The notes beneath the pieces are model-generated. The model was given only the letters and a program-made list of their open reading frames with translations, ran no database searches and was not told the DNA's origin. A DNA stretch of 15,187 bases from Bacteriovoracaceae bacterium (GTDB taxonomy: Bacteria; Bdellovibrionota; Bacteriovoracia; Bacteriovoracales; Bacteriovoracaceae). Shown piece by piece: positions 1 to 13,991 of this stretch; positions within the stretch are counted from its first letter, which is position 1, and each line of letters opens with the position of its first letter. A program made the translations under genes and the position numbers. The DNA lies in NCBI GenBank assembly GCA_048270185.1, contig JBLWTJ010000006.1, forward strand, positions 1-15,187. The letters are read 5' to 3'.

Positions 1-25
1 TACAGAAAAATCTATACTTAGAGCC

Positions 26-80
26 TTTACACTCAGCGATGTGTATAATATCTTGTATATATATCGTATTTTTATGAGGT
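26..80 (+). promoter_or_regulatory. Putative -10 box and RBS for the RHH gene, overlapped by a short inverted repeat
   Basis: TATAAT at 44-49; TACAC-N8-GTGTA inverted repeat at 28-45; GAGGT Shine-Dalgarno at 76-80, 6 nt before the ATG at 87. No -35 at canonical spacing. Confidence 0.45.
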
Positions 81-86
81 ATCGAA

Positions 87-326
87 ATGACTACGAAAGT
101 GGAGTTGAAAAAGGTTAGCATGAATCTAACCCAAACCGACATTACCAACTTGGAAGAATTAAAAACCACCCTAAATCAGAGGACTGAGGCAAGTGTAGTT
201 AGCCTGTCACTGGCTTTAACGAAAGAGTTCACCGACATGATCCTGTCAGGACAGAGAATCTTAACAGAAGATAAGGATGGGAAAATTCAAGAAATCCGAA
301 TCGTTGGACTTGTGCAAAACAGATAA
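87..326 (+). CDS. Ribbon-helix-helix (CopG-like) DNA-binding protein, 79 aa
   Basis: Alternating N-terminal beta strand (KVSMNL), then two helices (QTDITNLEELKTTL; TEASVVSLSLALTKE) and a C-terminal beta hairpin (GQRILTEDKDGKIQEI) as in small CopG-family proteins; strong RBS. Confidence 0.65.
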   Translation: MTTKVELKKVSMNLTQTDITNLEELKTTLNQRTEASVVSLSLALTKEFTDMILSGQRILTEDKDGKIQEIRIVGLVQNR

Positions 327-387
327 ACCGAATTAGCCTGTAGCGCTGCCTTCTCCGTCTTCACAGGAAGATATCTTACCCACAGAA

Positions 388-428
388 AAAGCCCAATAAC
401 AAAGTAATATTATGATTTATTGGGCTTT
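388..428. terminator. Probable bidirectional intrinsic terminator between convergent genes
   Basis: Perfect 12-bp arms AAAGCCCAATAA (388-399) / TTATTGGGCTTT (417-428), 17-nt loop, A/T tracts on both sides. Confidence 0.65.
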
Positions 429-502
429 ATTTAAAAGTACCATCAACTTTCAACAGTTTAAGAGAGCGGCTTGCTGTTTCAGCCCCCTTTTCTTTTTAAC
501 TT

Positions 503-2095
503 TTAGCTCTTTTTGTTGATGAGCATCAAGAGCTGTGACAATGAACTTTTAGATTTGTCTTCCAAGCGCTCACCAAACCTTAGAAGTACGTCATTAATCT
601 TCTCAGATGTGATTTGAGCGTAGTCATTAAATACAGTTTGAGCAGTAACATCAAAGCGCTCTCTACGGTCTTTAGACTCAACTTCAAAAAGATTGCTGAT
701 TTCCATAACCTTCTTCAAAATCGCTTCTTTATGCTTCTTAGACTTAGAAGAGCTACTCAACAATGAATCTAACTCAGCAGCAAGTTTCATCAAGGTTTCT
801 GAAGATTCAGGAATCTCAATCTTATGAGGTTCCTCGATCATCTTCGGCGCTTTCTTTAATTCTAGCGACAGTCCTTCACCAAGGAATCGTGTTAACGTGC
901 CTTTAACCCAGTTCCCACCAAGTGATGATTGAAGCAGTTCCATCATTTGGTATCGAGTCATACTCAAAGTCAAAATATCAGTTTCAGCTTCGTAGTACTG
1001 GTCGCCATAACTATCAGTGGAGTAGCTAGAGAACGAACAAGTGAAAGTAAAGTAGTCTTGAACAATTCGAGAATCCCCGAAGAAAAAGTGTGGACTACCA
1101 GATGGATTGTTGATTTTTACCATTGCCTGGTTAACACCGCGAAGATTCTTTTTCTGACTGTGTTTATCGAACAATCTACTTGCTTGAGCAATGTAATCTA
1201 CGTCTTTGCTTTTCTCCACCAGCCTTAACAGGGATTCAGTCTTTTCTGTTCGACCATTTAACTCGTAGTAACAAGCTAATGGAGAGTTAGAAAAAGAAGA
1301 TTGCTCATCTGCATAAGCGATAGCTTTATGCTCAACAACACTTGAAAGAGAACTACTGATAGAACTCGCAATCTCTGTTCGAACATGATGTGCATTCTGC
1401 TCTAACTTTTCTGCAATGATTTCAAAATCAAAAGCATGATCATCGGTGGAATAACCATAAACCTTTCTTGCAAAACCTTGCAGCTTCTCTTTATCTTTCT
1501 TATTGAGAAGACAAGTAGAACTATTGATACGCTCTGCCTCTTCAAGTGCTTCTTCAATTTCTTTTCTGATATTGCTGTGCTTATCATTGAGTCGCTTAAA
1601 ATACTCACCACTTGCTGTTTGCTTTGGCTCATATTTAGGTAGAGGTACACCATTTAATTCAATGATGTTTGCTGGCTCACCTTTATACTTCTCACGGTCA
1701 AAGGTCATATCTGACAGACCGCGCTCAGAAATTGCTACTCGGAGGATTACGTTATCCTCATCAGGAACCCACTTACCATCCTGCGCTTTAGCAAAGCATA
1801 CTGAAATTTCATTAATTGTATCACTAGGAACATGTGAGCCATACATATACATAGGCTCAACTTTTTTCGGTGAAATCTTCATGAATACGAAAGATTTTGA
1901 ATAGTCTTTAGCATCAATATCTTTCTGGTATTGGTTGAATGTTTTAGCTTTCTTAATAAGCTCTTTAATGTTTTCTCTGTCGATTTGAGATAGGGACTCC
2001 CCATGCTCCACCAGCATACTCTCAAGCAGCTCAGGTTTTGCTAATAGCTCCATTTCTACTCCAAAATCACAATAAATTTTGAATGATTCTGGCAT
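503..2095 (-). CDS. Hypothetical protein (530 aa, or 516 aa from ATG at 2053) with a tandemly duplicated phage-type domain
   Basis: Long ORF; two internally similar units (aa ~67-246 and ~322-503). The ATG at 2053 (MELLAK) has a GGAG SD 5 nt upstream and lies downstream of a predicted promoter, so it is probably the real start. Confidence 0.85.
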   Translation of the reverse strand: MPESFKIYCDFGVEMELLAKPELLESMLVEHGESLSQIDRENIKELIKKAKTFNQYQKDIDAKDYSKSFVFMKISPKKVEPMYMYGSHVPSDTINEISVCFAKAQDGKWVPDEDNVILRVAISERGLSDMTFDREKYKGEPANIIELNGVPLPKYEPKQTASGEYFKRLNDKHSNIRKEIEEALEEAERINSSTCLLNKKDKEKLQGFARKVYGYSTDDHAFDFEIIAEKLEQNAHHVRTEIASSISSSLSSVVEHKAIAYADEQSSFSNSPLACYYELNGRTEKTESLLRLVEKSKDVDYIAQASRLFDKHSQKKNLRGVNQAMVKINNPSGSPHFFFGDSRIVQDYFTFTCSFSSYSTDSYGDQYYEAETDILTLSMTRYQMMELLQSSLGGNWVKGTLTRFLGEGLSLELKKAPKMIEEPHKIEIPESSETLMKLAAELDSLLSSSSKSKKHKEAILKKVMEISNLFEVESKDRRERFDVTAQTVFNDYAQITSEKINDVLLRFGERLEDKSKSSLSQLLMLINKKS

Positions 2096-2114
2096 AAAAC
2101 CATCAATTCGTCAA
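2086..2114 (-). promoter_or_regulatory. Putative sigma70 promoter for the 530-aa gene
   Basis: Minus strand TTGACG-N17-CAGAAT with TGn immediately before the -10; the -35 is one arm of a GTCAA-N6-TTGAC inverted repeat (2110-2125). Confidence 0.45.
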
Positions 2115-2143
2115 TTACTTTTGACTTTATTTATATATAATTA

Positions 2144-3277
2144 CTAACAATAGAACTTTGCTTTATCTTGGCTCATAAACCATTTCTTTAGCTTGTCTTT
2201 TCCATGAGCAATAATTAATTTTTCGCAGTGTTCGAATAACGCAAACCAAACCTCACAAAAGTAACTTTCTGAATACTCATCGCCATTGATCATGGCATGA
2301 TTCATACAGCCACCTTTGCAGTAGTTTCGGTATTTGCAGTCAATACATTTTGAATTTGACTTAATCCCTCGTTTCGAAAGTTTTCGAACTAGCTTGAAGT
2401 CAGCGACTCCCTCAACTGCGTTTCCAAGCTTATGACGCTTTGTTTCCGCCATATCCATGCAAACATACAAATCACCATTTGGTTCAACGCATATTGATTT
2501 TGACGAACAACCATAAGCAAAAGGGCAAGAATCCCCTGTACCACACAGCTTCGTGTCTTCATCTAAAACCATTCTAAGAATATGACCAAGAGGTTCTATA
2601 GGAGTGTCATAGTTTAGAACCCATTCATCCATTATCTCTATCAGAGCCTTCGCCATTTTATCAAGGGGAGCAATATCAACTGGATTGTTCGCTTCGTATG
2701 CTGGATAGAGACCAATCGCATAACCTTCACTTAAAGCCTTTTTTGCTTCCTTTACTGCATTTTGCAGACCATTCAAATCCAGAACGTATACAGAACCCGT
2801 TGGAATACTTTTACATACATCGACTACATTAACTTCAAATCTTTTCCTGTAATTCTCTGAAGTTCCTTTAAACCTTCTCTGATCAGTAAAGTGGTCTACT
2901 GATGTAGTCATTCTTCCTTCAAACTTGTCCCATAGTTCCTTTAGCTTCTCGGTATTCCCCACAAAATTACTTTGCGCACCGTCTTTAAAATTGTATCCCG
3001 ACCTTTCAAAGACCGCCCTGGCATAATCAATACAGCTTATAAACATCTGACTAGGAAGGAGTGAAATCTCACCTCCAACGTACTCTAGGTCTACGTAATC
3101 TCCCGATTTTGAACCTATTGAGGGTAAGTAAGTATTCACTAGGTAATCAATTGAGCGCTTGAAATCATCCTCACTCATTCTACTGTTTGATGAATGTGGA
3201 GCTATACAATACGAACATTGAGCATTGCATTTTTTAGTCATTCTAAACTGAATGGTATAAGTACTACTTTTCATCAT
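2144..3277 (-). CDS. Radical SAM/SPASM domain protein (anSME-like cysteine pattern), 377 aa
   Basis: CNAQCSYC (CX3CX2C) near the N-terminus; VGGE motif; SPASM region CPFAYGC...EPNGDLYVC...LGN...CIDCKYRNYCKGGC...YFC. Confidence 0.95.
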   Translation of the reverse strand: MMKSSTYTIQFRMTKKCNAQCSYCIAPHSSNSRMSEDDFKRSIDYLVNTYLPSIGSKSGDYVDLEYVGGEISLLPSQMFISCIDYARAVFERSGYNFKDGAQSNFVGNTEKLKELWDKFEGRMTTSVDHFTDQRRFKGTSENYRKRFEVNVVDVCKSIPTGSVYVLDLNGLQNAVKEAKKALSEGYAIGLYPAYEANNPVDIAPLDKMAKALIEIMDEWVLNYDTPIEPLGHILRMVLDEDTKLCGTGDSCPFAYGCSSKSICVEPNGDLYVCMDMAETKRHKLGNAVEGVADFKLVRKLSKRGIKSNSKCIDCKYRNYCKGGCMNHAMINGDEYSESYFCEVWFALFEHCEKLIIAHGKDKLKKWFMSQDKAKFYC

Positions 3278-3863
3278 TTACAATCCAATGAGTTAAATGT
3301 GGTGTGATGATTCTTTTAGACCATAATGGGCTGATCCATGAGCCAGGAAGTTCATTGAACCAAATCATTTTTTCTTGCCTAAACATAAGGTTTATGAAAT
3401 GCATGTAATGCACTACTCTAGGATCCTTTAAAGCTGACTTATCTGAGTCACCATAATCAAACAACTGTGTGTAGTGCGTTGAAACCTCACCTAACAATTC
3501 GTTTTCTACTTTAAAGAGTGAAGCATTAGGTGGAAGCATAAGTGAGTGAGTCCTCACATCGCTGCTTAATGTGAACAACTGGCTCATCAACGAGCAAAGC
3601 CTGTCATTGCTTTGGGATAAAAATCCATCCCGAATCACTGGATGAAAGTATACTGACTTACCCTTTTTTAAATACTTAAGCAGAGCGCACAATAGTAATT
3701 CGAAATCGTCTGATACGATTAGCACGTCAGGTTTAACTTCATAAAGTGGTGGTCTTAATTTAGTAGGCTCCAAATGCCCCCCGTAAGGCACTGCCTTAGA
3801 AAGATACTCATATCTTTGTGTGCCTTTAGGAATTTTTTCATATTTAAGATCGTTAACGCTCAT
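3264..3863 (-). CDS. Hypothetical accessory protein of the radical SAM operon, 199 aa
   Basis: ORF overlaps both neighbours (11 and 14 nt), indicating translational coupling; contains DVLIVSDDFELLLCALLKYLKKGKSVYF, a Rossmann-like beta-alpha-beta without GxGxxG. Confidence 0.8.
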   Translation of the reverse strand: MSVNDLKYEKIPKGTQRYEYLSKAVPYGGHLEPTKLRPPLYEVKPDVLIVSDDFELLLCALLKYLKKGKSVYFHPVIRDGFLSQSNDRLCSLMSQLFTLSSDVRTHSLMLPPNASLFKVENELLGEVSTHYTQLFDYGDSDKSALKDPRVVHYMHFINLMFRQEKMIWFNELPGSWISPLWSKRIITPHLTHWIVNDEK

Positions 3864-5046
3864 CTGAAATCCGTTTTAATTTTTCATTATTACTTTGTAT
3901 GTAGCTAAGGAACGACTTTAATCCGTGACATTCTAAGCCACTTTTGGGATCCCATAACCTTGACCTTTGTTGACATCCACCTTTGCAATTATCAACAAAT
4001 TCACAAGCTAAGCATGTTTTAGGTAAGCGCTCGTTAGCAAAAAGTTGCTGAGTTCTTACTGGTGAATTTTCTATATCAACAATACTGTCTTCGAAAATAT
4101 TTCCAAAGGAAAGAGGGGTCGAGTTACCAATTTCCGCAGCGCAGCCAGTGACTAACCCATCCGTTCTTGTTGAGAAACCCTTACCAGAACCACAGGCTAT
4201 ATCCCCTAGCTCTTGGTCATGAAGAAGGTCTGCTATCATTCCATGAATAGGATCCACCCGTAACCCCCCATCTTCTTTGGATTTGTTTAGAAGCCATTCT
4301 GTAATCAGAACATAGTAGTCAGACTCAGCCTGAAACCCCATATGCATGTTTTTTGAAATACTGTATCGTTTCCTTTTTCTCGAAAACTTTAGGTGTTCAG
4401 CGTTCTTATCAGAAAGATATACTGCATAGTCATCTTTGGACATAGAGTGTTCAAGATAGCTACCACCAGGCACCGCGTTATTAATCTGAAAGTTTCTAAC
4501 TCCAATGTCATAGAAATAGTCAAAAAGCTCAACGCCTTTATCCATAACATCAGGCGTAGTTGTAAAAGACAACACAACGCGCTTACCACGAGCAACCCAA
4601 TCCTTTATGTTTTGTTCCCAAACCTTAAACTTTCTTTCATCAAACCTATTTGGCTCATAGCTGGTGGCAATAAAGTCGAATAAGTCCGCAATTTTTTCAA
4701 GCTTGGAAAGATGCATAAAATTGGTCATCAGAGTAATGAAGGCGTACTTTCCTGTCTTTTCAAAATCAAACTTTCTACGAATGTAAGGGATAACTTCTTG
4801 GTAAAATTCGGCATCAACCAGTGTTGGTTCACCCCCCATGATGGTCATTTCAGCATTTTGAATGTTAGAATTAACAAAATGTTCCGCGTATTTATCTACT
4901 ACGATTTTGAACTGCTCTACGCTCATTCTTGTTTTATCATGTCGCATAGCCTCTTCAATGAAGCAATGGTCGCATGATAAGGAGCAGTTCATGGTTGGAT
5001 AAAAATAGTATTGAGCGATTTTTATATCTTGATTAGTGTTCATCAT
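3853..5046 (-). CDS. Radical SAM/SPASM domain protein, 397 aa
   Basis: CSLSCDHC; MGGEPTL; SPASM ACGSG...DGLVTGC...FGNI...CLACEFVDNCKGGC...EC (7 Cys). Confidence 0.95.
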   Translation of the reverse strand: MMNTNQDIKIAQYYFYPTMNCSLSCDHCFIEEAMRHDKTRMSVEQFKIVVDKYAEHFVNSNIQNAEMTIMGGEPTLVDAEFYQEVIPYIRRKFDFEKTGKYAFITLMTNFMHLSKLEKIADLFDFIATSYEPNRFDERKFKVWEQNIKDWVARGKRVVLSFTTTPDVMDKGVELFDYFYDIGVRNFQINNAVPGGSYLEHSMSKDDYAVYLSDKNAEHLKFSRKRKRYSISKNMHMGFQAESDYYVLITEWLLNKSKEDGGLRVDPIHGMIADLLHDQELGDIACGSGKGFSTRTDGLVTGCAAEIGNSTPLSFGNIFEDSIVDIENSPVRTQQLFANERLPKTCLACEFVDNCKGGCQQRSRLWDPKSGLECHGLKSFLSYIQSNNEKLKRISDER

Positions 5047-6244
5047 TCAAAAGTACCGATAGACGTTCTTGATGGTTTCTGATGTACTCCATAAATGGCT
5101 TAAGACCATGACAGTTAGCCTTATCGCCTTTCGCATTCCAGAATCTAGCCCTCAACATACAAGAGCCGTAGCAGTTACTTAAAAACTCACACTTACGACA
5201 TTCTTTATCAAGACGACTCCCCATAGAGCTATGCATTTCCTTGGCTTCTGAGTTCGCAATATCTTGCACATTGTCTTTATAGATATTTCCATAGCTAAGC
5301 ATATTTTTACTGCCAATTTCCGAAGCACACCCAGTTATGGCACCATCGAAACGAACATTCATACCTTTGTTGATACAACACGAGATATCATCAATCTCAT
5401 GGTTGTAAACAACCCCACTAATAAAGCTATTTACTGGATAGATATTTACATCAATCCCATCCATTCTCTTTTTATAGAGCCATTCAGTAACAGCAATGAG
5501 GTATTCAGCTTCACTCTTAAAGTCAGGAATGATTTTTGCGTTCTCAATTACGATTTTTCTTCTATTTCTTAGCGGGATCGACAGGTCGTCCGTTCTAACG
5601 GAGACATGGCTTTCATAGAATTCGTTGCCGAATTCATTCTCGATAATCTTTCCTTCAGGGACTATGGTATTTAGCTGAATAAATCTAATTCCTTTATCTA
5701 GGAACTTGTCTAGTAAATCAGTACCTGCGTCAATGACATCTTGTGTTGTAGCTAAAGATATGGACAAAGGCTTACCAGATTCAAGATAGATATTGAGATT
5801 CTTTTCCCACGTTTCTTTTTTACGATCAATGCTTGCGACCATATTTGCTGAGGTGAATCTCGCTGGTTCATAACTCGTAACCACAAGGTCAAATAAATCC
5901 CTCATTCTTTCCAGATTCGGCAGGTGAAGTAAGTTCGTTACTATCGAAACCATAAACCCCTTACCTGTTTCTTCGAAGCGTTGTCTTAGGTATGGGATTA
6001 CTTCATGATAGAAATCACTTGGGATTAACGTAGGTTCGCCACCAATAATCGTAATCTCAGCAAACTGAGCTTTTGAATCCTTGAAATGACTGGAAAACTT
6101 ATCTGCGACGATCTTGAATTGATCCTCGGTCATGGTTTCCTTTGAATTTATCAGGCTCTTATCAATAAAACAGTGCTGGCATGAAAGCGAACACCTCATT
6201 GATGGGTATATATGGTATTGATAGTTATTCATTTCTTTGGTCAT
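5033..6244 (-). CDS. Radical SAM/SPASM domain protein, 403 aa (paralog of 3853..5046)
   Basis: CSLSCQHC; IGGEPTL; SPASM SCC...DGAITGC...YGNI...CRKCEFLSNCYGSC...NC. Start could also be the Met at 6232. Confidence 0.95.
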   Translation of the reverse strand: MTKEMNNYQYHIYPSMRCSLSCQHCFIDKSLINSKETMTEDQFKIVADKFSSHFKDSKAQFAEITIIGGEPTLIPSDFYHEVIPYLRQRFEETGKGFMVSIVTNLLHLPNLERMRDLFDLVVTSYEPARFTSANMVASIDRKKETWEKNLNIYLESGKPLSISLATTQDVIDAGTDLLDKFLDKGIRFIQLNTIVPEGKIIENEFGNEFYESHVSVRTDDLSIPLRNRRKIVIENAKIIPDFKSEAEYLIAVTEWLYKKRMDGIDVNIYPVNSFISGVVYNHEIDDISCCINKGMNVRFDGAITGCASEIGSKNMLSYGNIYKDNVQDIANSEAKEMHSSMGSRLDKECRKCEFLSNCYGSCMLRARFWNAKGDKANCHGLKPFMEYIRNHQERLSVLLNDEH

Positions 6245-6333
6245 TTAATTTATTAATAAAAATGGATTATATAACCAAAGAAACGAGTCAAAATTGATGT
6301 GGGTCAATAAGAAAAGGACAAAAGTTGATGTTT

Positions 6334-6356
6334 AACGCCCTTGTCTCAAGGACGTT
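6334..6356 (-). terminator. Stem-loop right after the pilin-like gene (leaky terminator or mRNA-stabilising hairpin)
   Basis: Minus strand AACGTCCTTG-AGA-CAAGGGCGTT: 10-bp stem with one G-U pair, 4 nt after the stop codon, no real U-tract on the minus strand. Confidence 0.6.
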
Positions 6357-6360
6357 TTTC

Positions 6361-6837
6361 TTAAAGATAGCAAAGTCTAAAAGTGGCAGTGCCTTGGTAG
6401 AATCCTTTCACGTTATGATTCGTAACATGCGCTGTAGCACCAACTCTAAGATTATCAATTTTACCTAAATGGTCGAATTGGGTTCTACCGTTGTAGTCCA
6501 TATCACCGCCATAGGAGAATCTATCTACTGGGATCATTAACGTATGATTTTGTCCGTTACCCGTTGTCATGATGATACTGTTTTGAACAACATAACCTCT
6601 AGCTTCCCACCCTGCTGCACCCTGCGCGGCAAAAACAGCAGCTTTAGCAGAATTTGGTGATGTCACAATTGGTTCATTGTGACCAACAAAGGTGGATTCG
6701 AACTCAAGGTTTCTAACGACCTGGATCGAAATGGGAGCCATAATCTCAAGCGAGGCAGTAAAGTTCTGGTCTTCAGCCTGCACAGTGGCTGATGATGCTA
6801 TCGAAGCTATCGCTAACGCTATTATTCTTTTACTCAT
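6361..6837 (-). CDS. Secreted DUF4402 / spore-coat-U (Csu pilin-like) family protein, 158 aa
   Basis: Sec signal peptide (MSKRIIALAIASIASSATVQA|EDQ); N-terminal ASLEIMAPISIQVVRNLEF and C-terminal LRVGATAHV...GFYQGTATFRLCY matching the G-x-Y-x-G...penultimate-Y pilin-like terminal strand; AAGGA RBS. Family assigned from recalled motif, not a search. Confidence 0.75.
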   Translation of the reverse strand: MSKRIIALAIASIASSATVQAEDQNFTASLEIMAPISIQVVRNLEFESTFVGHNEPIVTSPNSAKAAVFAAQGAAGWEARGYVVQNSIIMTTGNGQNHTLMIPVDRFSYGGDMDYNGRTQFDHLGKIDNLRVGATAHVTNHNVKGFYQGTATFRLCYL

Positions 6838-6882
6838 TAATATTCCTTGACTTTTTTATTGACTAATGATTTTTATCTGCAA

Positions 6883-6910
6883 ATTATATCAAGGAAAGTC
6901 TGTTGTACAA
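6883..6910 (-). promoter_or_regulatory. Strong sigma70-type promoter for the pilin-like gene
   Basis: Minus strand TTGTAC-N16-TATAAT with a perfect extended -10 (TG-A-TATAAT), about 45 nt upstream of the ATG at 6837. Confidence 0.65.
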
Positions 6911-7035
6911 GATCTAAACTAAAAAAAATGATCATTATAGGAAATGTTAAACTATTAGGTAAGAACACCATTTTTTTAACAATCACTATGTTAATTATTA
7001 ATTTGATTAATTTTGTTCATTGAAAACGAATTGTT

Positions 7036-7044
7036 TGATAAAAT
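7036..7044 (+). promoter_or_regulatory. Putative extended -10 promoter for 7071..8378
   Basis: TG-A-TAAAAT in an AT-rich divergent intergenic region. Confidence 0.4.
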
Positions 7045-7070
7045 AATAAAAAACAAAATGAGCTTAAAAA

Positions 7071-8378
7071 ATGAATAATTTTGAAATTATCGAACAAAAC
7101 AAGAACCTTATAAATAATCCATTTGAAATAAATGAAGCTGAATCGACCTTCACAGTAAATGGTGTGACTTATGGGGTAAATAAGGCTACGGTGAGTGTTA
7201 TTGCTGAAGCATTTATCAAGGCTAAAGAAGATTCTGCGGTATTGAATAGACTTAATAACCTGTTTGATGCTAAGCAAATTCAGTCGGGCGAACGCCTAAA
7301 CAATATGACTTTTCTATGCGTAAAAAACGATTTTTTCGGAAACTGGATAGAGACCAGTGAATCTGATGATTTTGACACAGCAACGTATTTCGCTCTTGTT
7401 GATTTGAAAGCAAAAGATAAAAGCGATTACTACAATGTTTTGATGTCTCCAGACAATCCAAATGTTTTTTGCAATTGCTATTCAGAAAATGGTGTTCCTT
7501 TATATGAAGTTCATTATTACAAAAGCAAAAATGAGTATGGACTTATTTGCAGTGGAAAAACCTTTGAAGAGGTGATTGGGAAATATGAAGCAGTAAAAGA
7601 CGAACTCCCTACGCCAATAACACTCATGAACAACTATGATATTGCCAATATTGAGCTTAGCGATGGAGTAGTTATTGAGGTTAAGCAAGACAGAAAGGAT
7701 GGAAGCATTGTAAACCCAACTGACTATCAGGTTAGATTAGTCAAAGGGGATAAGGTATCTGATACGATGTACATTAGCGGTGAACCGCTTAGCATCCTTA
7801 ATCTTCGCGATGGTAAAATTGACTATGAAGAGTTTGGTTTAAGTCCAGATGATATCGTCAATCAAGCTGATGTTATCCAGTCAGATATCAAACTAAAGAT
7901 AAAGGATGATGTACGATCAGAAGAGATCCAAGACATCATTGCTAAATCTGTTATGAAGTTAGGCGATGAAGAATACTCTAAATGGATTTGTTTAGAAAGC
8001 GATGCTAGCCCATATCAAATTTCATTTAGAGTTGAAAACCCTAAACATTGCTCTGAAGATCAATTGCAGAATATCGATTTTCAGATTAAGCATAAGCTTG
8101 GCGCTTACGTAGGTGACTACTCTGGGCTGATGATTTCTTCAGAATACATAGCTAGAACACTATCTAACAACAGTAAATTCAATTCAGGTATTTACGATGA
8201 TAGATTAGAGGAAGACATGCAAAATGAAGGAGTGCTAGATATCCCTTCTGAAGACCTAAGAATTGAAGATATGATCGCAAGATACATCTCTTTCCCTGGT
8301 GATTGCATTGAAATCCACTTAGACGAATTCAATGAAAGAAACGCAAAAATATCGAAAGAATCAACCCTTTCAATTTAA
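7071..8378 (+). CDS. Acidic hypothetical protein, 435 aa
   Basis: Long uninterrupted ORF, D/E-rich, no recognised catalytic motif. Confidence 0.85.
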   Translation: MNNFEIIEQNKNLINNPFEINEAESTFTVNGVTYGVNKATVSVIAEAFIKAKEDSAVLNRLNNLFDAKQIQSGERLNNMTFLCVKNDFFGNWIETSESDDFDTATYFALVDLKAKDKSDYYNVLMSPDNPNVFCNCYSENGVPLYEVHYYKSKNEYGLICSGKTFEEVIGKYEAVKDELPTPITLMNNYDIANIELSDGVVIEVKQDRKDGSIVNPTDYQVRLVKGDKVSDTMYISGEPLSILNLRDGKIDYEEFGLSPDDIVNQADVIQSDIKLKIKDDVRSEEIQDIIAKSVMKLGDEEYSKWICLESDASPYQISFRVENPKHCSEDQLQNIDFQIKHKLGAYVGDYSGLMISSEYIARTLSNNSKFNSGIYDDRLEEDMQNEGVLDIPSEDLRIEDMIARYISFPGDCIEIHLDEFNERNAKISKESTLSI

Positions 8379-8832: not shown

Positions 8833-9528
8833 TTAGTACTCCATTTCAGGTTCGGTTATTTTGAAGCTTTTAAGATCATCAAATCCTCTATCTCTTAATT
8901 CAATCAGTTCATCCAGATTAATCTCTACCCATTCACCCAATAGATCTCCATCCTCAACAATAGATTCCATTTGGTCTAATGTAAGGTTTTTCTTTCTGTG
9001 ATTACTTATTAATATATCGTGGTACTTGAGATCTAATTCAGCACCTTTCCAGAAATATGCTTTATTTAGAATTTCGGATTTATCACTATCTTCATGCATA
9101 AATTCATCTGAATAATTCGATGAAGATTTATCTATAACTATGAAATCAAAATCTTTGGAAGATTCCATTTTTTTGTATAAACCTAACGCGCTTTGAGTAA
9201 CATTTTCTCTATCGCTAATCAATAAGGCTCCACCATCAATCTTAGAAAGCTCAATCATCAGTGATTGATATAGCAGTGAACCAAATCCAGGATAAGCTCC
9301 TGTAGTATCAGTTACGAAATATACTGATTTTCCGTCAATCTTTTCATCAGATCGTTCAACAGATACTTGACCAATAGTTTCAAAGTCTGAATATTGATTC
9401 TTTTTATCAATATAGAGAGTTACACATAACCTTAGGTCATCAGAATAATGATTTACTAATAGTGAAGGATTGACAGAGGAAATGGCTTTTAAATTTTCAA
9501 TCGACTTAGGATCTAACATTTTTGACAT
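8833..9528 (-). CDS. Putative GNAT-fold acetyltransferase-like protein, 231 aa
   Basis: Beta strand YFVTDT, motif-A-like AYPGFGSLLYQSLM helix, then LISDRENVTQSALGLYKKM (motif-B-like, A-x-x-L-Y-x-K). Confidence 0.55.
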   Translation of the reverse strand: MSKMLDPKSIENLKAISSVNPSLLVNHYSDDLRLCVTLYIDKKNQYSDFETIGQVSVERSDEKIDGKSVYFVTDTTGAYPGFGSLLYQSLMIELSKIDGGALLISDRENVTQSALGLYKKMESSKDFDFIVIDKSSSNYSDEFMHEDSDKSEILNKAYFWKGAELDLKYHDILISNHRKKNLTLDQMESIVEDGDLLGEWVEINLDELIELRDRGFDDLKSFKITEPEMEY

Positions 9529-9553
9529 TCTTTTTTTATATTATTCTTAAATA

Positions 9554-9562
9554 ATTTTACCA
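9554..9562 (-). promoter_or_regulatory. Putative extended -10 promoter for the GNAT-like gene
   Basis: Minus strand TG-G-TAAAAT 25 nt upstream of the ATG at 9528; a second minus-strand TATAAT at 9592-9597. Confidence 0.4.
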
Positions 9563-9606
9563 CATAAAAATATAAGTTTAATGTTTTTATTATTATACAC
9601 ACTATA

Positions 9607-9727
9607 ATGACTCATGGTTATTCTCTGGGTATAATAATGATAGTTTTGACTGTACAGATTGTAGCTGAAAAAAGTTTGCGAAATATTTTCAAATAGCTAC
9701 TCCAAACAAGCTATGCAGTGATATAAT
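9607..9727 (+). promoter_or_regulatory. Two putative tandem promoters for 9754..10224
   Basis: ATGACT-N17-TATAAT (9607-9635) and a perfect extended -10 TG-A-TATAAT (9719-9727). Confidence 0.5.
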
Positions 9728-9753
9728 AATTAAAAATTCATTGAGAGATAAAT

Positions 9754-10224
9754 ATGAAAGTTACTAAAGAATCACTCAGCAGACAGAAAGCTATCAAACT
9801 AATTTGGAGCCAAACAAGCCCTGACTTTAGAGGGCAGCTAGGAGGTAAACCATCAATTATGCTTAATGCTGCTGATGGAGGTGGTCTATGTACCGTTGAC
9901 GGGTTAACTGACGCTCAATTTGAACGCTACTTGCAAGATGCAATTGATTCAAAAAACAGAGACACATGTAAAGATTTGGCTGTTAAAATCTTTAGTCAGC
10001 ATAAAGATGTCTTTGCACCATTAGACCTTCTTGATAAAAACTGCGGAACCATCAATCAGTGGTGTCGTGACTTTAATGGAATCAGAGAGCTTGTAATCGG
10101 CTTAGGTTCAAAAGGTGATGGTCATTATAGTGACGATAAAGCCAAAGAAATACTAAAGACTGTCGATCACTTTGAAGAAGTGTACAACAGAACCTCTGAA
10201 CCTTCAGCATCGCTTTCTCGTTAA
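9754..10224 (+). CDS. Hypothetical protein, 156 aa, with a phage-type N-terminal domain
   Basis: GAGAG RBS, own promoter and terminator; N-terminal SRQKAIKLIWSQTSPDFRG...SIM...LTDAQF resembles small uncharacterised phage proteins as I recall them. Confidence 0.8.
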   Translation: MKVTKESLSRQKAIKLIWSQTSPDFRGQLGGKPSIMLNAADGGGLCTVDGLTDAQFERYLQDAIDSKNRDTCKDLAVKIFSQHKDVFAPLDLLDKNCGTINQWCRDFNGIRELVIGLGSKGDGHYSDDKAKEILKTVDHFEEVYNRTSEPSASLSR

Positions 10225-10258: not shown

Positions 10259-11518
10259 CTATTTTGGCTTTCTGTCTGTAGGTTGATTCTTCTTTTGAGT
10301 GATTTTATTTTCGGAAACAAAAGGTTTAATCGCTCTAATTCTAGCCTCTAAAACTTGCTGCTCCACATGTTTAGATTTCTTATCAATCTTCGAAAGATCC
10401 GCCTTTTTTGCCAGCTTTAACACCTGCATTAGGTAATCTCTTTGCGGGTAAGATTCTTCTTCGAATCCCGTTCTACCACGAGAATCCGCTTCACCGCAGA
10501 TAGCCAACATCTCCAAGTTCTTAGGATTTCGGATTGCATCAATAGCATAGAAAAATTTGATAAATGTTGAAGGACTTCTTAAGAAAGCTTCATGTGAGTG
10601 AGTGTGAAATTCAGAAGCAATTTTACCAAATGTTCTGTATTTCTTCGGCACCCTCAATCTGTCACAAATATCATCAACTAAAGGAACACCTCTAATCTCG
10701 TGCATGTGATGTCTTGGAAGAATATCCTTCGGTGTTAGCCCCTTACCTAAATCGTGAACTAGCACACCAAATCGAGTAACTGAACAGGTAGTTAGCTTTA
10801 CAGATTGCTGAAGAGCCATCATAACATGAATACCTGTATCAACCTCTGGATGATACTCGCGTCTTTGTCTTACACCGAACAACCGATCAACTTCTGGCAA
10901 GATCTCTTTTAAAGCACCAACTTTCTTCAGAACCAGAAAGAACTTGTGTGGGGATTGGGTTTCTAATGCCCCCTTAATCTCGCTCCAGATACGCTCTGGA
11001 GAGATTGTTGTCAATTCACCAGAGCTGACTACCTTCTTCATCATGTATAGCGTTTCAGGAGCTACAGTGAAGCCCAGATGCGCATATCTTGCTAGGAACC
11101 TTGCAACCCTTAGCACCCTTAAAGGATCTTCGGTAAAAGCCGTGGATACGTGGCGTAGTAATCTAGCCTCGATATCTTTCTTCCCGCCATATGGATCAAT
11201 TAATTCGCCAGTTTCTAAATCTTGCGCAATGGCATTAATAGTAAGGTCACGTCTAAAGAGATCTTGCTCGATAGAGATTTCTGGAGAAGTGCTAGGGATG
11301 AAGCCATGATAGCCAGTACCTGATTTCTTCTCGGTACGAGCAAGCGCATACTCACAGCCATCTTTGAGAAAAACTGGAAAGGCTTTACCCACATTAACAA
11401 AACCATCATTGAGCATGTCTTCAACACTAGCACCAGTTACTGCGAAATCTCTATCTTTAGGCTCAATACCTAATAATGTATCTCTGACAGCGCCACCTAC
11501 TAAATATACTTTGCGCAT
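10259..11518 (-). CDS. cca: Multifunctional CCA tRNA nucleotidyltransferase with HD phosphoesterase domain
   Basis: YLVGGAVRD...KDRD (DxD), EYALARTE, DLFRRDLTINA, EDPLRVLRVARF, ERIWSE, YHPEVDTGIH and HDLGKG: class II CCA enzyme of the E. coli type. Confidence 0.97.
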   Translation of the reverse strand: MRKVYLVGGAVRDTLLGIEPKDRDFAVTGASVEDMLNDGFVNVGKAFPVFLKDGCEYALARTEKKSGTGYHGFIPSTSPEISIEQDLFRRDLTINAIAQDLETGELIDPYGGKKDIEARLLRHVSTAFTEDPLRVLRVARFLARYAHLGFTVAPETLYMMKKVVSSGELTTISPERIWSEIKGALETQSPHKFFLVLKKVGALKEILPEVDRLFGVRQRREYHPEVDTGIHVMMALQQSVKLTTCSVTRFGVLVHDLGKGLTPKDILPRHHMHEIRGVPLVDDICDRLRVPKKYRTFGKIASEFHTHSHEAFLRSPSTFIKFFYAIDAIRNPKNLEMLAICGEADSRGRTGFEEESYPQRDYLMQVLKLAKKADLSKIDKKSKHVEQQVLEARIRAIKPFVSENKITQKKNQPTDRKPK

Positions 11519-11524
11519 AAAACC

Positions 11525-12091
11525 TCACGATTGATACTCACCCTTCCAAGGTGGAATACTATTAATTTCAACTTCTTTTATTTTTTTATCTAAGATTAGA
11601 TTTTGGATGGCAGTCTTTCGAGCAGAGAAATCATCTTTGCATCCATCCTTCTCAAGCTCATAAAGAGTCTTACTGACTCCATTAGGAACAAAGAAAGGAT
11701 CAAATCCAAATGCATCATTGGGAACATCCTTAATGTCTTTAAACGTTCCGTGTGTAACCCCTTGATACAAAGCAACACTATAACCATTATGAAGAGCTAA
11801 CGTTGTAATCCACTCAAGCTTACAATCACTTGAATCTGCGATCTGACTAAGCTCTGATAGTCTGTAACGGATATCCGTAATTTCTTCGCCGTTAACTTTT
11901 AAGATTGTATCTTCGACTATCGCGCCTTCGCCAGCTTCAAGCGATTTGTAAATCGCAACTTCAATTGAGTCCTCTGATTTCACTTCTTTAAGGTCTTCAC
12001 CATGCTGAATGTCAACATCTAGACCACCAGATAACCTTATAAACTCTTTTAATTTGTTTAAGTTTGAAGTAACCAATCTAATCTTGTTCAT
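11525..12091 (-). CDS. Ham1/ITPase-family non-canonical purine NTP pyrophosphatase (RdgB-like, divergent)
   Basis: VTSNLNKLKE, K in AIYKS, VEDT, FGFDPFF, LYEL..K...SAR; the canonical SHR is SAR and the LxGxPG segment is absent. Confidence 0.88.
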   Translation of the reverse strand: MNKIRLVTSNLNKLKEFIRLSGGLDVDIQHGEDLKEVKSEDSIEVAIYKSLEAGEGAIVEDTILKVNGEEITDIRYRLSELSQIADSSDCKLEWITTLALHNGYSVALYQGVTHGTFKDIKDVPNDAFGFDPFFVPNGVSKTLYELEKDGCKDDFSARKTAIQNLILDKKIKEVEINSIPPWKGEYQS

Positions 12092-12462: not shown

Positions 12463-12493
12463 CCTAAACTCTTTATTATTAATTGTTTTATCA

Positions 12494-12522
12494 ATTTTAA
12501 ATGACATTAGATTGTTTTTCAA
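12494..12522 (-). promoter_or_regulatory. sigma70 promoter for the DMT-Ham1-cca operon
   Basis: Minus strand TTGAAA-N17-TAAAAT, 31 nt upstream of the ATG at 12462. Confidence 0.6.
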
Positions 12523-12593
12523 ACAAAAACAATATGACATTTTAATGGATATGGTTGTATGTAACGAGCGATGAATGAGTGTTGAAGAGTAAT

Positions 12594-12622
12594 AAAAAAG
12601 GCTGCTATTCATAGCAGCCTTT
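12594..12622 (-). terminator. Intrinsic terminator of 12627..13991
   Basis: Minus strand AAAGGCTGCTAT-GA-ATAGCAGCCTTTTTT directly after the stop codon. Confidence 0.88.
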
Positions 12623-12626
12623 AATG

Positions 12627-13991
12627 TTAATCTTTCTTACTGAAGGAGAGAAAGTGACCTCCTTGAGAGTTCTCTTCCTTATCCTTCACAACAGAGAAAT
12701 TCTCATCAATATCAGAAAGTTTTACTTCTTTCGTATGAATAGCTTCTGCACGAAAATCTTTGTAACTTTTAACTACCGACACCATTTCAGGAATTTTATA
12801 ATCTCTTATTCCATATAAACGCACAAGTTTTTTAGAAACTACTCCCGATCTCATTCCTTGAAGTGAATAGCCATGTATTTGTGGATTTTTAATAAACTTT
12901 CTAATGTCAGGAACCTGCTCAACAAACTCACCGAAAATTAATTCTCCTAAGCTAAAGTTAATATTAGAAAAGTTTGATGTCTGAAAATTGACATGAACTG
13001 AGCAATCAAGTTGAGAAATCAGCTTGGAAGCCATCACATCTTTTTCATCAATAATCGTCACATCTAAGTCAGAAGACAATAACAACTTAAGCATTAAATC
13101 GTAGTGTGAGTCATTAAATAGGAAGATTTTTTTTCGATCATATTTTTTAACTTCATCTAAAGCATCAATATAGGTAATCCACTTCTCTGGATTTTCTTTT
13201 GGATTAGTTTCTCCGTCATATTTGAAGTAAAAATGACCAGTGTGCATATTATGAATTAGAGCTTTTGATGATTTCACATCATTGAACTGATGCAATTCTG
13301 ATGAATATCCTTGCTCTCCTGGCTTACTCACTGAATCTGATATTCTACGTAATAAAAATTCTACGCTATGACCGTACCCTCTAGTATCTGGCAGATCGCA
13401 TGTTGAAAACGAGAAGGAGTCAGTATATTTATAAGAGTTCTCCTTAAAACTCTGTATGCATGACTCTTTTGAACCAAATTCATCAGAACCTGAATATTCA
13501 CGCATATCAGTTATTGGGTAGTAATCGCAAGAAACAAACTCATAATTACTTAAGATCAGATCGAATAGTTCTTCATTATTAAGAAACCCCTCATATCTAC
13601 AATAAACATCCTTATCATTTATATGACGAGCAAGTATTGAATGAGCTTGACCATCAAAAGCTAAGCTACCATTTTCATGCATAGTAATATACGTAGGAAG
13701 TTCATCCATAATTCCTTTGTATTTTTGGTATAATTCAAGATTTTTCTCATTTTTCTCCTGAATTTGTTGTTCGCGCTCTTTTAGCATAAAGTTGATTACG
13801 TTCGCGTCAAATCCTAACTCATTGTTTTCTGTCAGAACATGATGCTTACAGGTAATCGACTTTGTTAGGTTTTCTATTTGTGTATCTAACTCTGCTTCTT
13901 GATTATCTGACAATTTGATACGTATAAGCGAATCCAACCAAATCTTCAGAGTTTCGCTAACATCACGGGAATTCTCTACTAAAGTGTACAT
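12627..13991 (-). CDS. Hypothetical protein, 454 aa
   Basis: Long ORF with AAGGA RBS and downstream terminator; short coiled-coil near aa 70-95; no recognised motif. Confidence 0.85.
   Translation of the reverse strand: MYTLVENSRDVSETLKIWLDSLIRIKLSDNQEAELDTQIENLTKSITCKHHVLTENNELGFDANVINFMLKEREQQIQEKNEKNLELYQKYKGIMDELPTYITMHENGSLAFDGQAHSILARHINDKDVYCRYEGFLNNEELFDLILSNYEFVSCDYYPITDMREYSGSDEFGSKESCIQSFKENSYKYTDSFSFSTCDLPDTRGYGHSVEFLLRRISDSVSKPGEQGYSSELHQFNDVKSSKALIHNMHTGHFYFKYDGETNPKENPEKWITYIDALDEVKKYDRKKIFLFNDSHYDLMLKLLLSSDLDVTIIDEKDVMASKLISQLDCSVHVNFQTSNFSNINFSLGELIFGEFVEQVPDIRKFIKNPQIHGYSLQGMRSGVVSKKLVRLYGIRDYKIPEMVSVVKSYKDFRAEAIHTKEVKLSDIDENFSVVKDKEENSQGGHFLSFSKKD

Follow-up and report, generated by a model that had tools for sequence, protein, structure and literature searches.

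A four-gene radical SAM/SPASM module on Vibrio megaplasmids as a candidate satellite of the conserved megaplasmid radical SAM cluster

What does a run of radical S-adenosylmethionine (SAM) enzymes modify when no short precursor gene is found beside it? The question is raised by contig JBLWTJ010000006.1 of GenBank assembly GCA_048270185.1 (Bacteriovoracaceae bacterium), a stretch of 15,187 nucleotides (nt) that was analyzed over its whole length and is called the window here. Its minus strand encodes three radical SAM (rSAM) enzymes with SPASM domains and a 199-amino-acid (aa) accessory protein. The explanation that we favor, and to which we give about an even chance, is that one sub-module of the radical SAM cluster of large MPF_I-type megaplasmids is present here as a satellite copy, serving the maturation of a protein encoded elsewhere. 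The four genes of the module, in order of transcription, are as follows.

5033..6244, minus strand: rSAM1, a radical SAM/SPASM enzyme of 403 aa, assigned from motifs, family scans and a tree; no N-terminal recognition domain
3853..5046, minus strand: rSAM2, a radical SAM/SPASM enzyme of 397 aa, a paralog of rSAM1 with 41% identity
3264..3863, minus strand: the accessory protein of 199 aa, from a tiny orphan family, with a predicted Rossmann-like alpha/beta fold and no GxGxxG motif
2144..3277, minus strand: rSAM3, a radical SAM/SPASM enzyme of 377 aa, from a lineage distinct from rSAM1 and rSAM2

Successive genes overlap by 14, 11 and 14 nt. The initial annotation of this DNA, made from the letters alone, had described five co-oriented minus-strand genes, the last four of them overlapping, and this layout proved accurate; the first of the five encodes an exported 158-aa protein to which we return below. 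The same annotation had noted no sulfatase, peptidase, ABC exporter or short precursor, which also held within the scans made: a family scan of 16 window open reading frames (ORFs) gave no sulfatase, peptidase or ABC transporter, no short precursor gene was found among ORFs of at least 30 aa at 2000–7100 when scanned for Cys-type motifs only, and a regular-expression scan of the window, likewise confined to Cys-type motifs, gave no small ORF with Cys repeats.

The CX3CX2C motif lies at residues 18–25, 21–28 and 17–24 of the three rSAM proteins, and the seven-cysteine SPASM motif (CX9-15GX4C ... CX2CX5CX3C ... C) is complete in all of them. Because CX3CX2C already starts at residue 17–21, the enzymes are without an N-terminal recognition domain, and no PqqD-type match was found among the window proteins in Pfam or NCBIfam. 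The SPASM domain model TIGR04085 scored 46.8, 35.2 and 36.1 bits across the three enzymes (NCBIfam cut-off 27), and the Pfam Radical_SAM scores of all three were slightly below the gathering score. rSAM3 is only a distant relative of the other two. Every equivalog model matched (DynA, anSME, PapB, SCIFF maturase, QhpD, HxsB and others) stayed far under its cut-off. The best NCBIfam hit, DynA (NF041298), gave 66.1, 62.7 and 81.1 bits against a cut-off of 450, and the anaerobic sulfatase-maturating enzyme model (anSME, TIGR03942) gave 66.2, 60.3 and 71.5 bits against 349.45. HxsB (TIGR03978) scored 39.2 bits with rSAM1 and 32.3 bits with rSAM3 against a cut-off of 370, and was not among the best 25 of the 46 families matched by rSAM2. 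These scores agree with the initial placement of the enzymes outside any characterized family. Profile matches to solved structures comprised 5wgg, anSME (4k36–4k39), YydG, SkfB and 5v1q, the best being 5wgg/5why (E 2e-21 and 4e-13). The nearest solved relatives of the three enzymes all modify peptides or proteins.

The replicon was identified by comparison with plasmids. Across its entire length, the window matches ~0.9-Mb plasmids of Vibrio parahaemolyticus and V. vulnificus with 99.3% and 99.1% identity; two further Vibrio plasmids are 97% identical to it. It constitutes an entire 15-kb contig (C6) of a 3.35-Mb, 30-contig assembly, and of the sampled plasmid stretches only those on C6 and one other contig, C23, occur in that assembly. 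C23 (500–5186) carries the end of the main rSAM cluster described below (a 368-aa rSAM enzyme, an 84-aa protein and a 404-aa rSAM enzyme) together with an exonuclease I gene, and is 98.9% identical there to the Vibrio plasmid CP099927. The 199-aa family was found by profile search in 0 of 236 genomes of the assembly's own family and 0 of 237 of its order. Judged by its sequence, the contig is megaplasmid DNA, whatever its host in the sample, and it may have been binned with an unrelated genome. The mobile replicon that had been proposed for this DNA thus takes the form of a megaplasmid, as the near-identity to the ~0.9-Mb Vibrio plasmids indicates. Searches against phages gave no match for the window (megablast) and a single jumbo phage for rSAM1 (tblastn, 23% identity).

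The operon had also been called an orphan, which is incorrect because relatives of rSAM1 were detected by tblastn on 139 plasmid records (132 from Pseudomonas, four from Vibrio and one each from Rhizobium, Stutzerimonas and Pantoea). Among the records listed, which include pQBR103, pMPPla107 and IncP-2 type plasmids, each holds two to five rSAM1-like places. A 'radical SAM gene cluster', also named the 'arylsulfatase/SAM region', is described in the accessible parts of three reports as conserved, along with genes for chemotaxis and type IV pili, in the backbones of megaplasmids such as pQBR103, pQBR57 and IncP-2/pBT2436-like plasmids; its function is called unknown there, and IncP-2 plasmids are described as spreading multidrug resistance in Pseudomonas (PMC4989453, PMC7070040, bioRxiv 10.64898/2026.03.27.714766). 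On CP099927, this main cluster lies at 200–209 kb and contains six rSAM/SPASM genes interspersed with genes for 252-, 285- and 84-aa proteins. It sits directly behind a 562-aa prepilin-type gene that ends a type IVb pilus operon, and is followed by sbcB and then by a DotA/TraY gene. The locus of the window is found 410 kb away at 619–624 kb, with no pilus genes or sbcB within 12 kb on either side, and brings the total of such enzymes on CP099927 to nine. The clusters of pQBR103, pPUV-13 and pMPPla107 have the layout of the Vibrio main cluster, and on the FeN3W plasmid, where the fetched stretch starts inside the rSAM run, the run likewise ends in sbcB, thyA and DotA/TraY. In main clusters, a 208–285-aa protein with a degenerate GxGxxG is encoded just upstream of the rSAM1-type gene. 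Interspersed with their rSAM genes, the Pseudomonas main clusters (L010 300–7201, L016 12274–19204) have additional genes for a ~1150-aa phosphoenolpyruvate (PEP)-utilizing enzyme and a 2-oxoglutarate (2OG)-Fe(II) oxygenase, neither of which occurs in the Vibrio main cluster. In the deposited annotation of CP099927 (L001 14144–15178 and 17033–18199), rSAM3 and rSAM1 start 33 and 15 codons, respectively, downstream of the ORF starts used here; the shorter forms cut off or abut CX3CX2C, and the longer ones agree with the homologs.

The relation between the window and the main cluster was resolved with a maximum-likelihood tree of 26 enzymes, in which the main-cluster enzymes separate into orthogroups common to Vibrio and Pseudomonas plasmids. 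The window enzymes are not inside these orthogroups and form sister clades of their own. rSAM1, rSAM2 and an enzyme from a metagenome locus (L013) make up one clade (100/100 support), which adjoins an orthogroup consisting of a Vibrio 368-aa, an FeN3W 381-aa and a pQBR103 415-aa enzyme, a join supported at only 81/42. rSAM3 groups with a partial L013 enzyme (100/97), and the sister of this group (100/100) is an orthogroup made up of the 398-aa enzyme of pQBR103, the 373-aa enzyme of Vibrio and the 382-aa enzyme of FeN3W. The rSAM1-side and rSAM3-side orthogroups are adjacent in the Vibrio main cluster, with one 285-aa protein between them. Because its enzyme clades are sister to two orthogroups that neighbor each other in the main cluster, the window, as read from this tree, holds an old paralog of that two-enzyme sub-module, in which the genes stand in the opposite order. 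That the main cluster was duplicated recently was considered and rejected, as the sister clades are old.

The two loci resemble each other in that their enzymes are homologous (25–33% identity), both lie on megaplasmids and both place an accessory protein between two enzyme types. They differ in that the window locus is separate and reduced, with three enzymes compared to 6–10, stands apart from type IV pilus genes and sbcB, contains no Cys/His-tail protein of the kind described below and has a 199-aa partner that is not confidently alignable to the accessory protein of the cluster.

The gene order of the window (rSAM1-type, 199-aa type and rSAM3-type) recurs at L013, the sole independent satellite context that was readable, taken from a single metagenome scan and located on a contig that ends inside rSAM3. 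With the overlapping genes, this recurrence upholds the earlier proposal that the three enzymes form one pathway, and on this evidence the three enzymes and the 199-aa gene are best regarded as one module conserved as a unit. The closest relatives of rSAM3 (82–47% identity) are separate from the main-type ones (≤35%), and some of them lie on contigs of up to 794,527 nt, one of which is named Vibrio owensii by its source. Scans of genome contigs and viral contigs revealed no other context in which the module or the 158-aa protein occurs. At L013 (4069–8142), the module is preceded by genes for a SecA homolog, for an exported protein of 125 aa that contains Cys and for a protein with a LytTR domain. 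The SecA homolog is 45% identical to the product of a SecA gene on contig C1 of the assembly that contains the window, and no relative of the 125-aa protein occurs in the window or at the plasmid loci sampled.

The 199-aa accessory protein gave no match in Pfam, NCBIfam, PHROG or PADLOC. Its family has five database relatives at 99–39% identity, of which the 99% one is the cluster of the window protein itself, and counts six representatives in a set of 1.84 billion proteins. A protein atlas search returned only scores under 0.9. The predicted structure (predicted local distance difference test score (pLDDT) 77) is an alpha/beta domain whose best matches, though weak, are flavoprotein domains for dinucleotide binding (Foldseek E 1.8e-3; VIA Z up to 6.2, which is under the tool's meaningful level), and the GxGxxG motif is not present. 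By analogy, we infer a role as a non-catalytic partner of the enzymes, in the way HxsD binds HxsC.

The genes that surround both loci could suggest a non-protein substrate, for instance a nucleotide, a nucleic acid (DNA or tRNA) or a cofactor: genes for a CCA-adding enzyme and a Ham1-type NTP pyrophosphatase lie in the window, sbcB closes the main cluster, as thyA does in the Pseudomonas plasmids, the pQBR103 and pPUV-13 clusters include the PEP-utilizing enzyme and the 2OG-Fe(II) oxygenase, and the enzymes weakly match viperin models. The viperin matches (NCBIfam, PADLOC), however, are confined to the N-terminal radical SAM core and are far below cut-off, whereas the SPASM motif is complete in all three enzymes. 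Together with the peptide- and protein-modifying activity of every solved relative found, and with a conserved exported protein inside main clusters, this renders a non-protein substrate very unlikely.

That exported protein is the first candidate for the substrate. In all four of the Pseudomonas clusters examined, a gene for an exported protein of 115–124 aa (as annotated) follows the third rSAM gene. The protein ends in a four-residue Cys/His (or Cys/Tyr) repeat and then Gly-Ser/Ala-Arg-Gly/Ser-Trp-Arg. The Vibrio main cluster is without a tail protein at that place, and the window encodes none. A 117-aa exported tail protein is instead encoded far from both rSAM loci on CP099927, at 70,538–70,891 (L014 2539–2892, plus strand), and its gene is found in four of four Vibrio plasmids. 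The homologous operons hence carry a conserved precursor candidate different from the one named in the initial annotation, which had favored the 158-aa protein and had mentioned only as a hedge that the substrate might be encoded elsewhere. The hedge now appears the better option. A substrate encoded at a distance, with the 117-aa tail protein as first choice, is a proposal that we hold with confidence and doubt in roughly equal measure.

A working scheme can be outlined from these elements. The duplicated rSAM1-type enzyme, the 199-aa partner and the rSAM3-type enzyme would form the four-gene satellite module. A Sec-exported protein would be the target of the enzymes while still unfolded in the cytoplasm and not yet exported, as is the case for anSME and HxsB/HxsC, and 5'-deoxyadenosyl radical chemistry would install cross-links or side-chain changes. 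The 199-aa protein would assist as a non-catalytic partner, and the substrate would be supplied from elsewhere on the plasmid, first of all the tail protein at 70.5 kb.

Three sets of known systems offer comparisons for this scheme. anSME modifies an exported protein before export and, like the window proteins, is a short SPASM enzyme (~370–400 aa) with no recognition domain that ranks among the best matches; unlike it, the window enzymes reach only 60–72 bits against the anSME cut-off of 349, and no sulfatase is present among the 16 window ORFs. The thioether-forming and other SPASM peptide maturases (5wgg/5why; DynA, PapB, SCIFF maturase and QhpD) share the cluster motifs and provide the best structure match, whereas the window enzymes have no N-terminal extension, no short precursor gene beside them and scores below the equivalog cut-offs. 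In the HXS antiphage system, as far as the accessible part of its description reports, HxsA is matured in the cytoplasm, ahead of its export, by the rSAM enzymes HxsB and HxsC together with the small HxsD, a binding partner of HxsC, so that SPASM-type rSAM enzymes (two in HXS) and a small non-enzymatic partner are encoded together, as in the window (PMC13128918). The window enzymes differ by scoring 32–39 bits on the HxsB model (cut-off 370), and the defense role is one described for HXS. An HxsA-type effector was sought in the window only, and its ORFs contain neither His-Xaa-Ser repeats nor a peptidoglycan-binding domain.

The strongest local competitor for the role of substrate is the 158-aa protein encoded immediately upstream of the module, with the following features.

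6883..6910, minus strand: promoter-like site read from the sequence, with TTGTAC, 16 nt and an extended -10 element TGaTATAAT
6361..6837, minus strand: exported DUF4402-like protein of 158 aa, an orphan paralog of the major subunit of a chaperone-usher-like fiber
6334..6356, minus strand: hairpin (stem of 10 bp, loop of 3 nt) that is not immediately followed by a U tract

The promoter and the U-tract-free hairpin had both been noted in the initial annotation, and both were found again. The -10 element is a perfect extended -10, though the -35 element matches the consensus at only three of six bases, which is why a promoter consensus scan missed the site. The 158-aa protein begins with a Sec-type signal peptide whose last residues are V-Q-A. 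Its score for DUF4402 (PF14352) is 20.6 bits, below the Pfam gathering score of 25.2; its two closest database homologs carry PF14352, and it is 48% identical to a paralog on the plasmid that scores 36.8 bits, over the cut-off. The protein thus likely belongs to DUF4402 by transitive homology. Its model is all-beta (pLDDT 63) and resembles chaperone-usher pilins weakly, with best Z scores of 5.5 (5lvy), 5.2 (Csu pilus, 7zl4) and 5.0 (CS17, 8ehs) that are tied with unrelated folds, and a Foldseek E of ~0.1. The paralog heads a four-gene operon at 73.2–77.4 kb of CP099927 (L014 5248–9406, minus strand) that encodes the 164-aa DUF4402 protein and, behind it, proteins of 167, 238 and 786 aa, of which the 238-aa one is exported and the 786-aa one has a CarboxypepD_reg-like stretch; the operon looks like a divergent chaperone-usher fiber system.

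Compared to such fiber operons, the window gene shares the 48% identity, the signal peptide, the all-beta model and a hairpin behind the gene. It differs in being followed by the rSAM module: no chaperone or usher genes stand beside it in the window, whereas the paralog is followed by the 167-, 238- and 786-aa genes. Stem-loops behind the subunit gene are usual in classical pilus operons, and a strong terminator-like hairpin with a U tract is located directly behind the paralog (L014). The hairpin behind the 158-aa gene, which had been read in the manner of clusters for peptides made by ribosomes and then altered post-translationally (RiPPs), needs no such logic because the paralogous fiber-subunit gene also carries one. 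A literature search found no paper using the word DUF4402, such fiber operons being uncharacterized, and among the papers listed for radical SAM/SPASM maturases and pilins none uses the word pilin.

Were the three enzymes to modify this neighboring fiber subunit in the cytoplasm before Sec export, an rSAM-matured pilin of the chaperone-usher type would result. The genetic arrangement lends some credit to this: the 158-aa gene is on the same strand 116 nt upstream of rSAM1, the intervening hairpin has no U tract, and RNA-library contigs from four runs span 1–6817 or 1–6859 unbroken and so bridge the spacer. Two of the four runs end at 6859 and the other two at 6817 with adapter letters; runs X1/X2 and X5/X6 show identical figures, so that the four are probably two data sets. 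A contig across genes is not proof of a single transcript, and DNA carry-over is possible in RNA-library contigs. Contig ends at 6859 and 6817 would agree with transcription that begins shortly after the -10 element; uncovered parts (6860–7064, ~9523–9791 and ~12470–12683) and contig ends are not counted here as evidence. Transcription from the promoter of the 158-aa gene probably reads through into the rSAM module. In addition, a pilus-protein gene immediately precedes the main cluster too, in the plasmids of Vibrio and of Pseudomonas alike, the other DUF4402 gene of CP099927 is 2.4–6.5 kb from the tail-protein gene, and the window copy has extra His residues in its C-terminal half compared to the paralog in an alignment.

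Conservation argues in the other direction. The module at L013 has no DUF4402 gene in 8.7 kb upstream and instead follows the LytTR gene and the unrelated 125-aa exported protein. By tblastn against plasmids, the 158-aa protein, like the 199-aa protein and the Vibrio tail protein, matches only four near-identical Vibrio plasmid records, and has no homolog on 135 of the 139 records with rSAM1 relatives; a PF14352 search of pQBR103 and the FeN3W plasmid gave nothing credible. The neighborhood conservation with DUF4402 genes, proposed initially as a check, was thus not seen at L013 or on those 135 records. Cys155, the lone C-terminal cysteine listed among others when the protein was named best local substrate candidate, is T or L in the two closest homologs, which have also lost the tail's His residues. 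The closest paralog heads a fiber operon that is free of rSAM genes and has a hairpin there too. Finally, a perfect TATAAT lies within the 116-nt spacer ahead of rSAM1, and the module may therefore have its own promoter. We consider modification of the 158-aa subunit unlikely; the gene is probably an orphan DUF4402 fiber-subunit paralog with its own promoter and hairpin and not the conserved partner of the module. The broader idea, that the satellite cross-links or rebuilds the DUF4402 subunit as the first rSAM-matured pilin of the chaperone-usher type and that megaplasmid clusters are pilus or fiber maturation systems, seems to us rather improbable; if true, the satellite would be a four-gene minimal version for testing it.

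The substrate could also be sought within the rSAM transcription unit itself, as the 199-aa protein, a small unannotated peptide or the product of the next gene.

503..2095, minus strand: ORF of 530 aa of unknown function, 48 nt downstream of rSAM3, matching only a PHROG family of unknown function

This ORF is under the same RNA-library contig as the rSAM module and possibly shares its transcription unit, and the 199-aa family, which has short motifs that are strictly conserved, accompanies the enzymes in every case. The 530-aa product, however, has no signal peptide or repeat motif, the 199-aa protein is predicted to be a folded domain placed where main clusters have their accessory protein, and the window, as noted, has no small ORF with Cys repeats. 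A substrate from within the unit is accordingly rather unlikely as well.

Several observations weigh against the satellite explanation that we prefer. The tail protein is 550 kb from the satellite, and the main cluster already has one enzyme of each type, so the satellite may have gained a new target; the pairing of module and substrate is one that we infer. The fold matches of the 199-aa protein are weak, and hhalign of its family against three main-cluster counterparts gave a probability of 6.6% with 38 columns aligned, by which homology is not established. L013 is the only independent satellite context read, with its contig cut inside rSAM3. The bridged spacer means that the DUF4402 gene could belong to the operon. 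Both DUF4402 genes of CP099927, moreover, have some component of the rSAM system at a distance of a few kb at most, a post-hoc observation that could be more than chance; between the tail-protein gene and the end of the fiber operon, there is one 610-aa helicase-like ORF (2.4 kb).

Clusters for rSAM/SPASM maturation are already known, including the uncharacterized megaplasmid cluster. What is new is the satellite module, which has an accessory family to itself, together with the spread of the system over three loci of one plasmid and the juxtaposition with DUF4402 genes, with the reservation that the supplements of the cited papers might list the genes. The radical SAM cluster is among the few modules conserved across very distant megaplasmids, IncP-2 included, and part of it exists as an independent module of three enzymes and one accessory protein. 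Four genes are far easier to reconstitute than 10–16, and with two named candidate substrates on the plasmid (the tail protein and the DUF4402 paralog), the chemistry of the family becomes directly testable. As the system is dispersed over at least three loci on the Vibrio plasmids, mining based on gene neighborhoods would miss such links.

Elsewhere in the window, no tRNA genes (ARAGORN) or RNA families (Rfam) were detected. The gene for the CCA-adding enzyme, which is full-length and multifunctional (540 bits, above cut-off), adjoins that for the Ham1-type NTP pyrophosphatase at 10259–12091 on the minus strand, and both are under one RNA-library contig.

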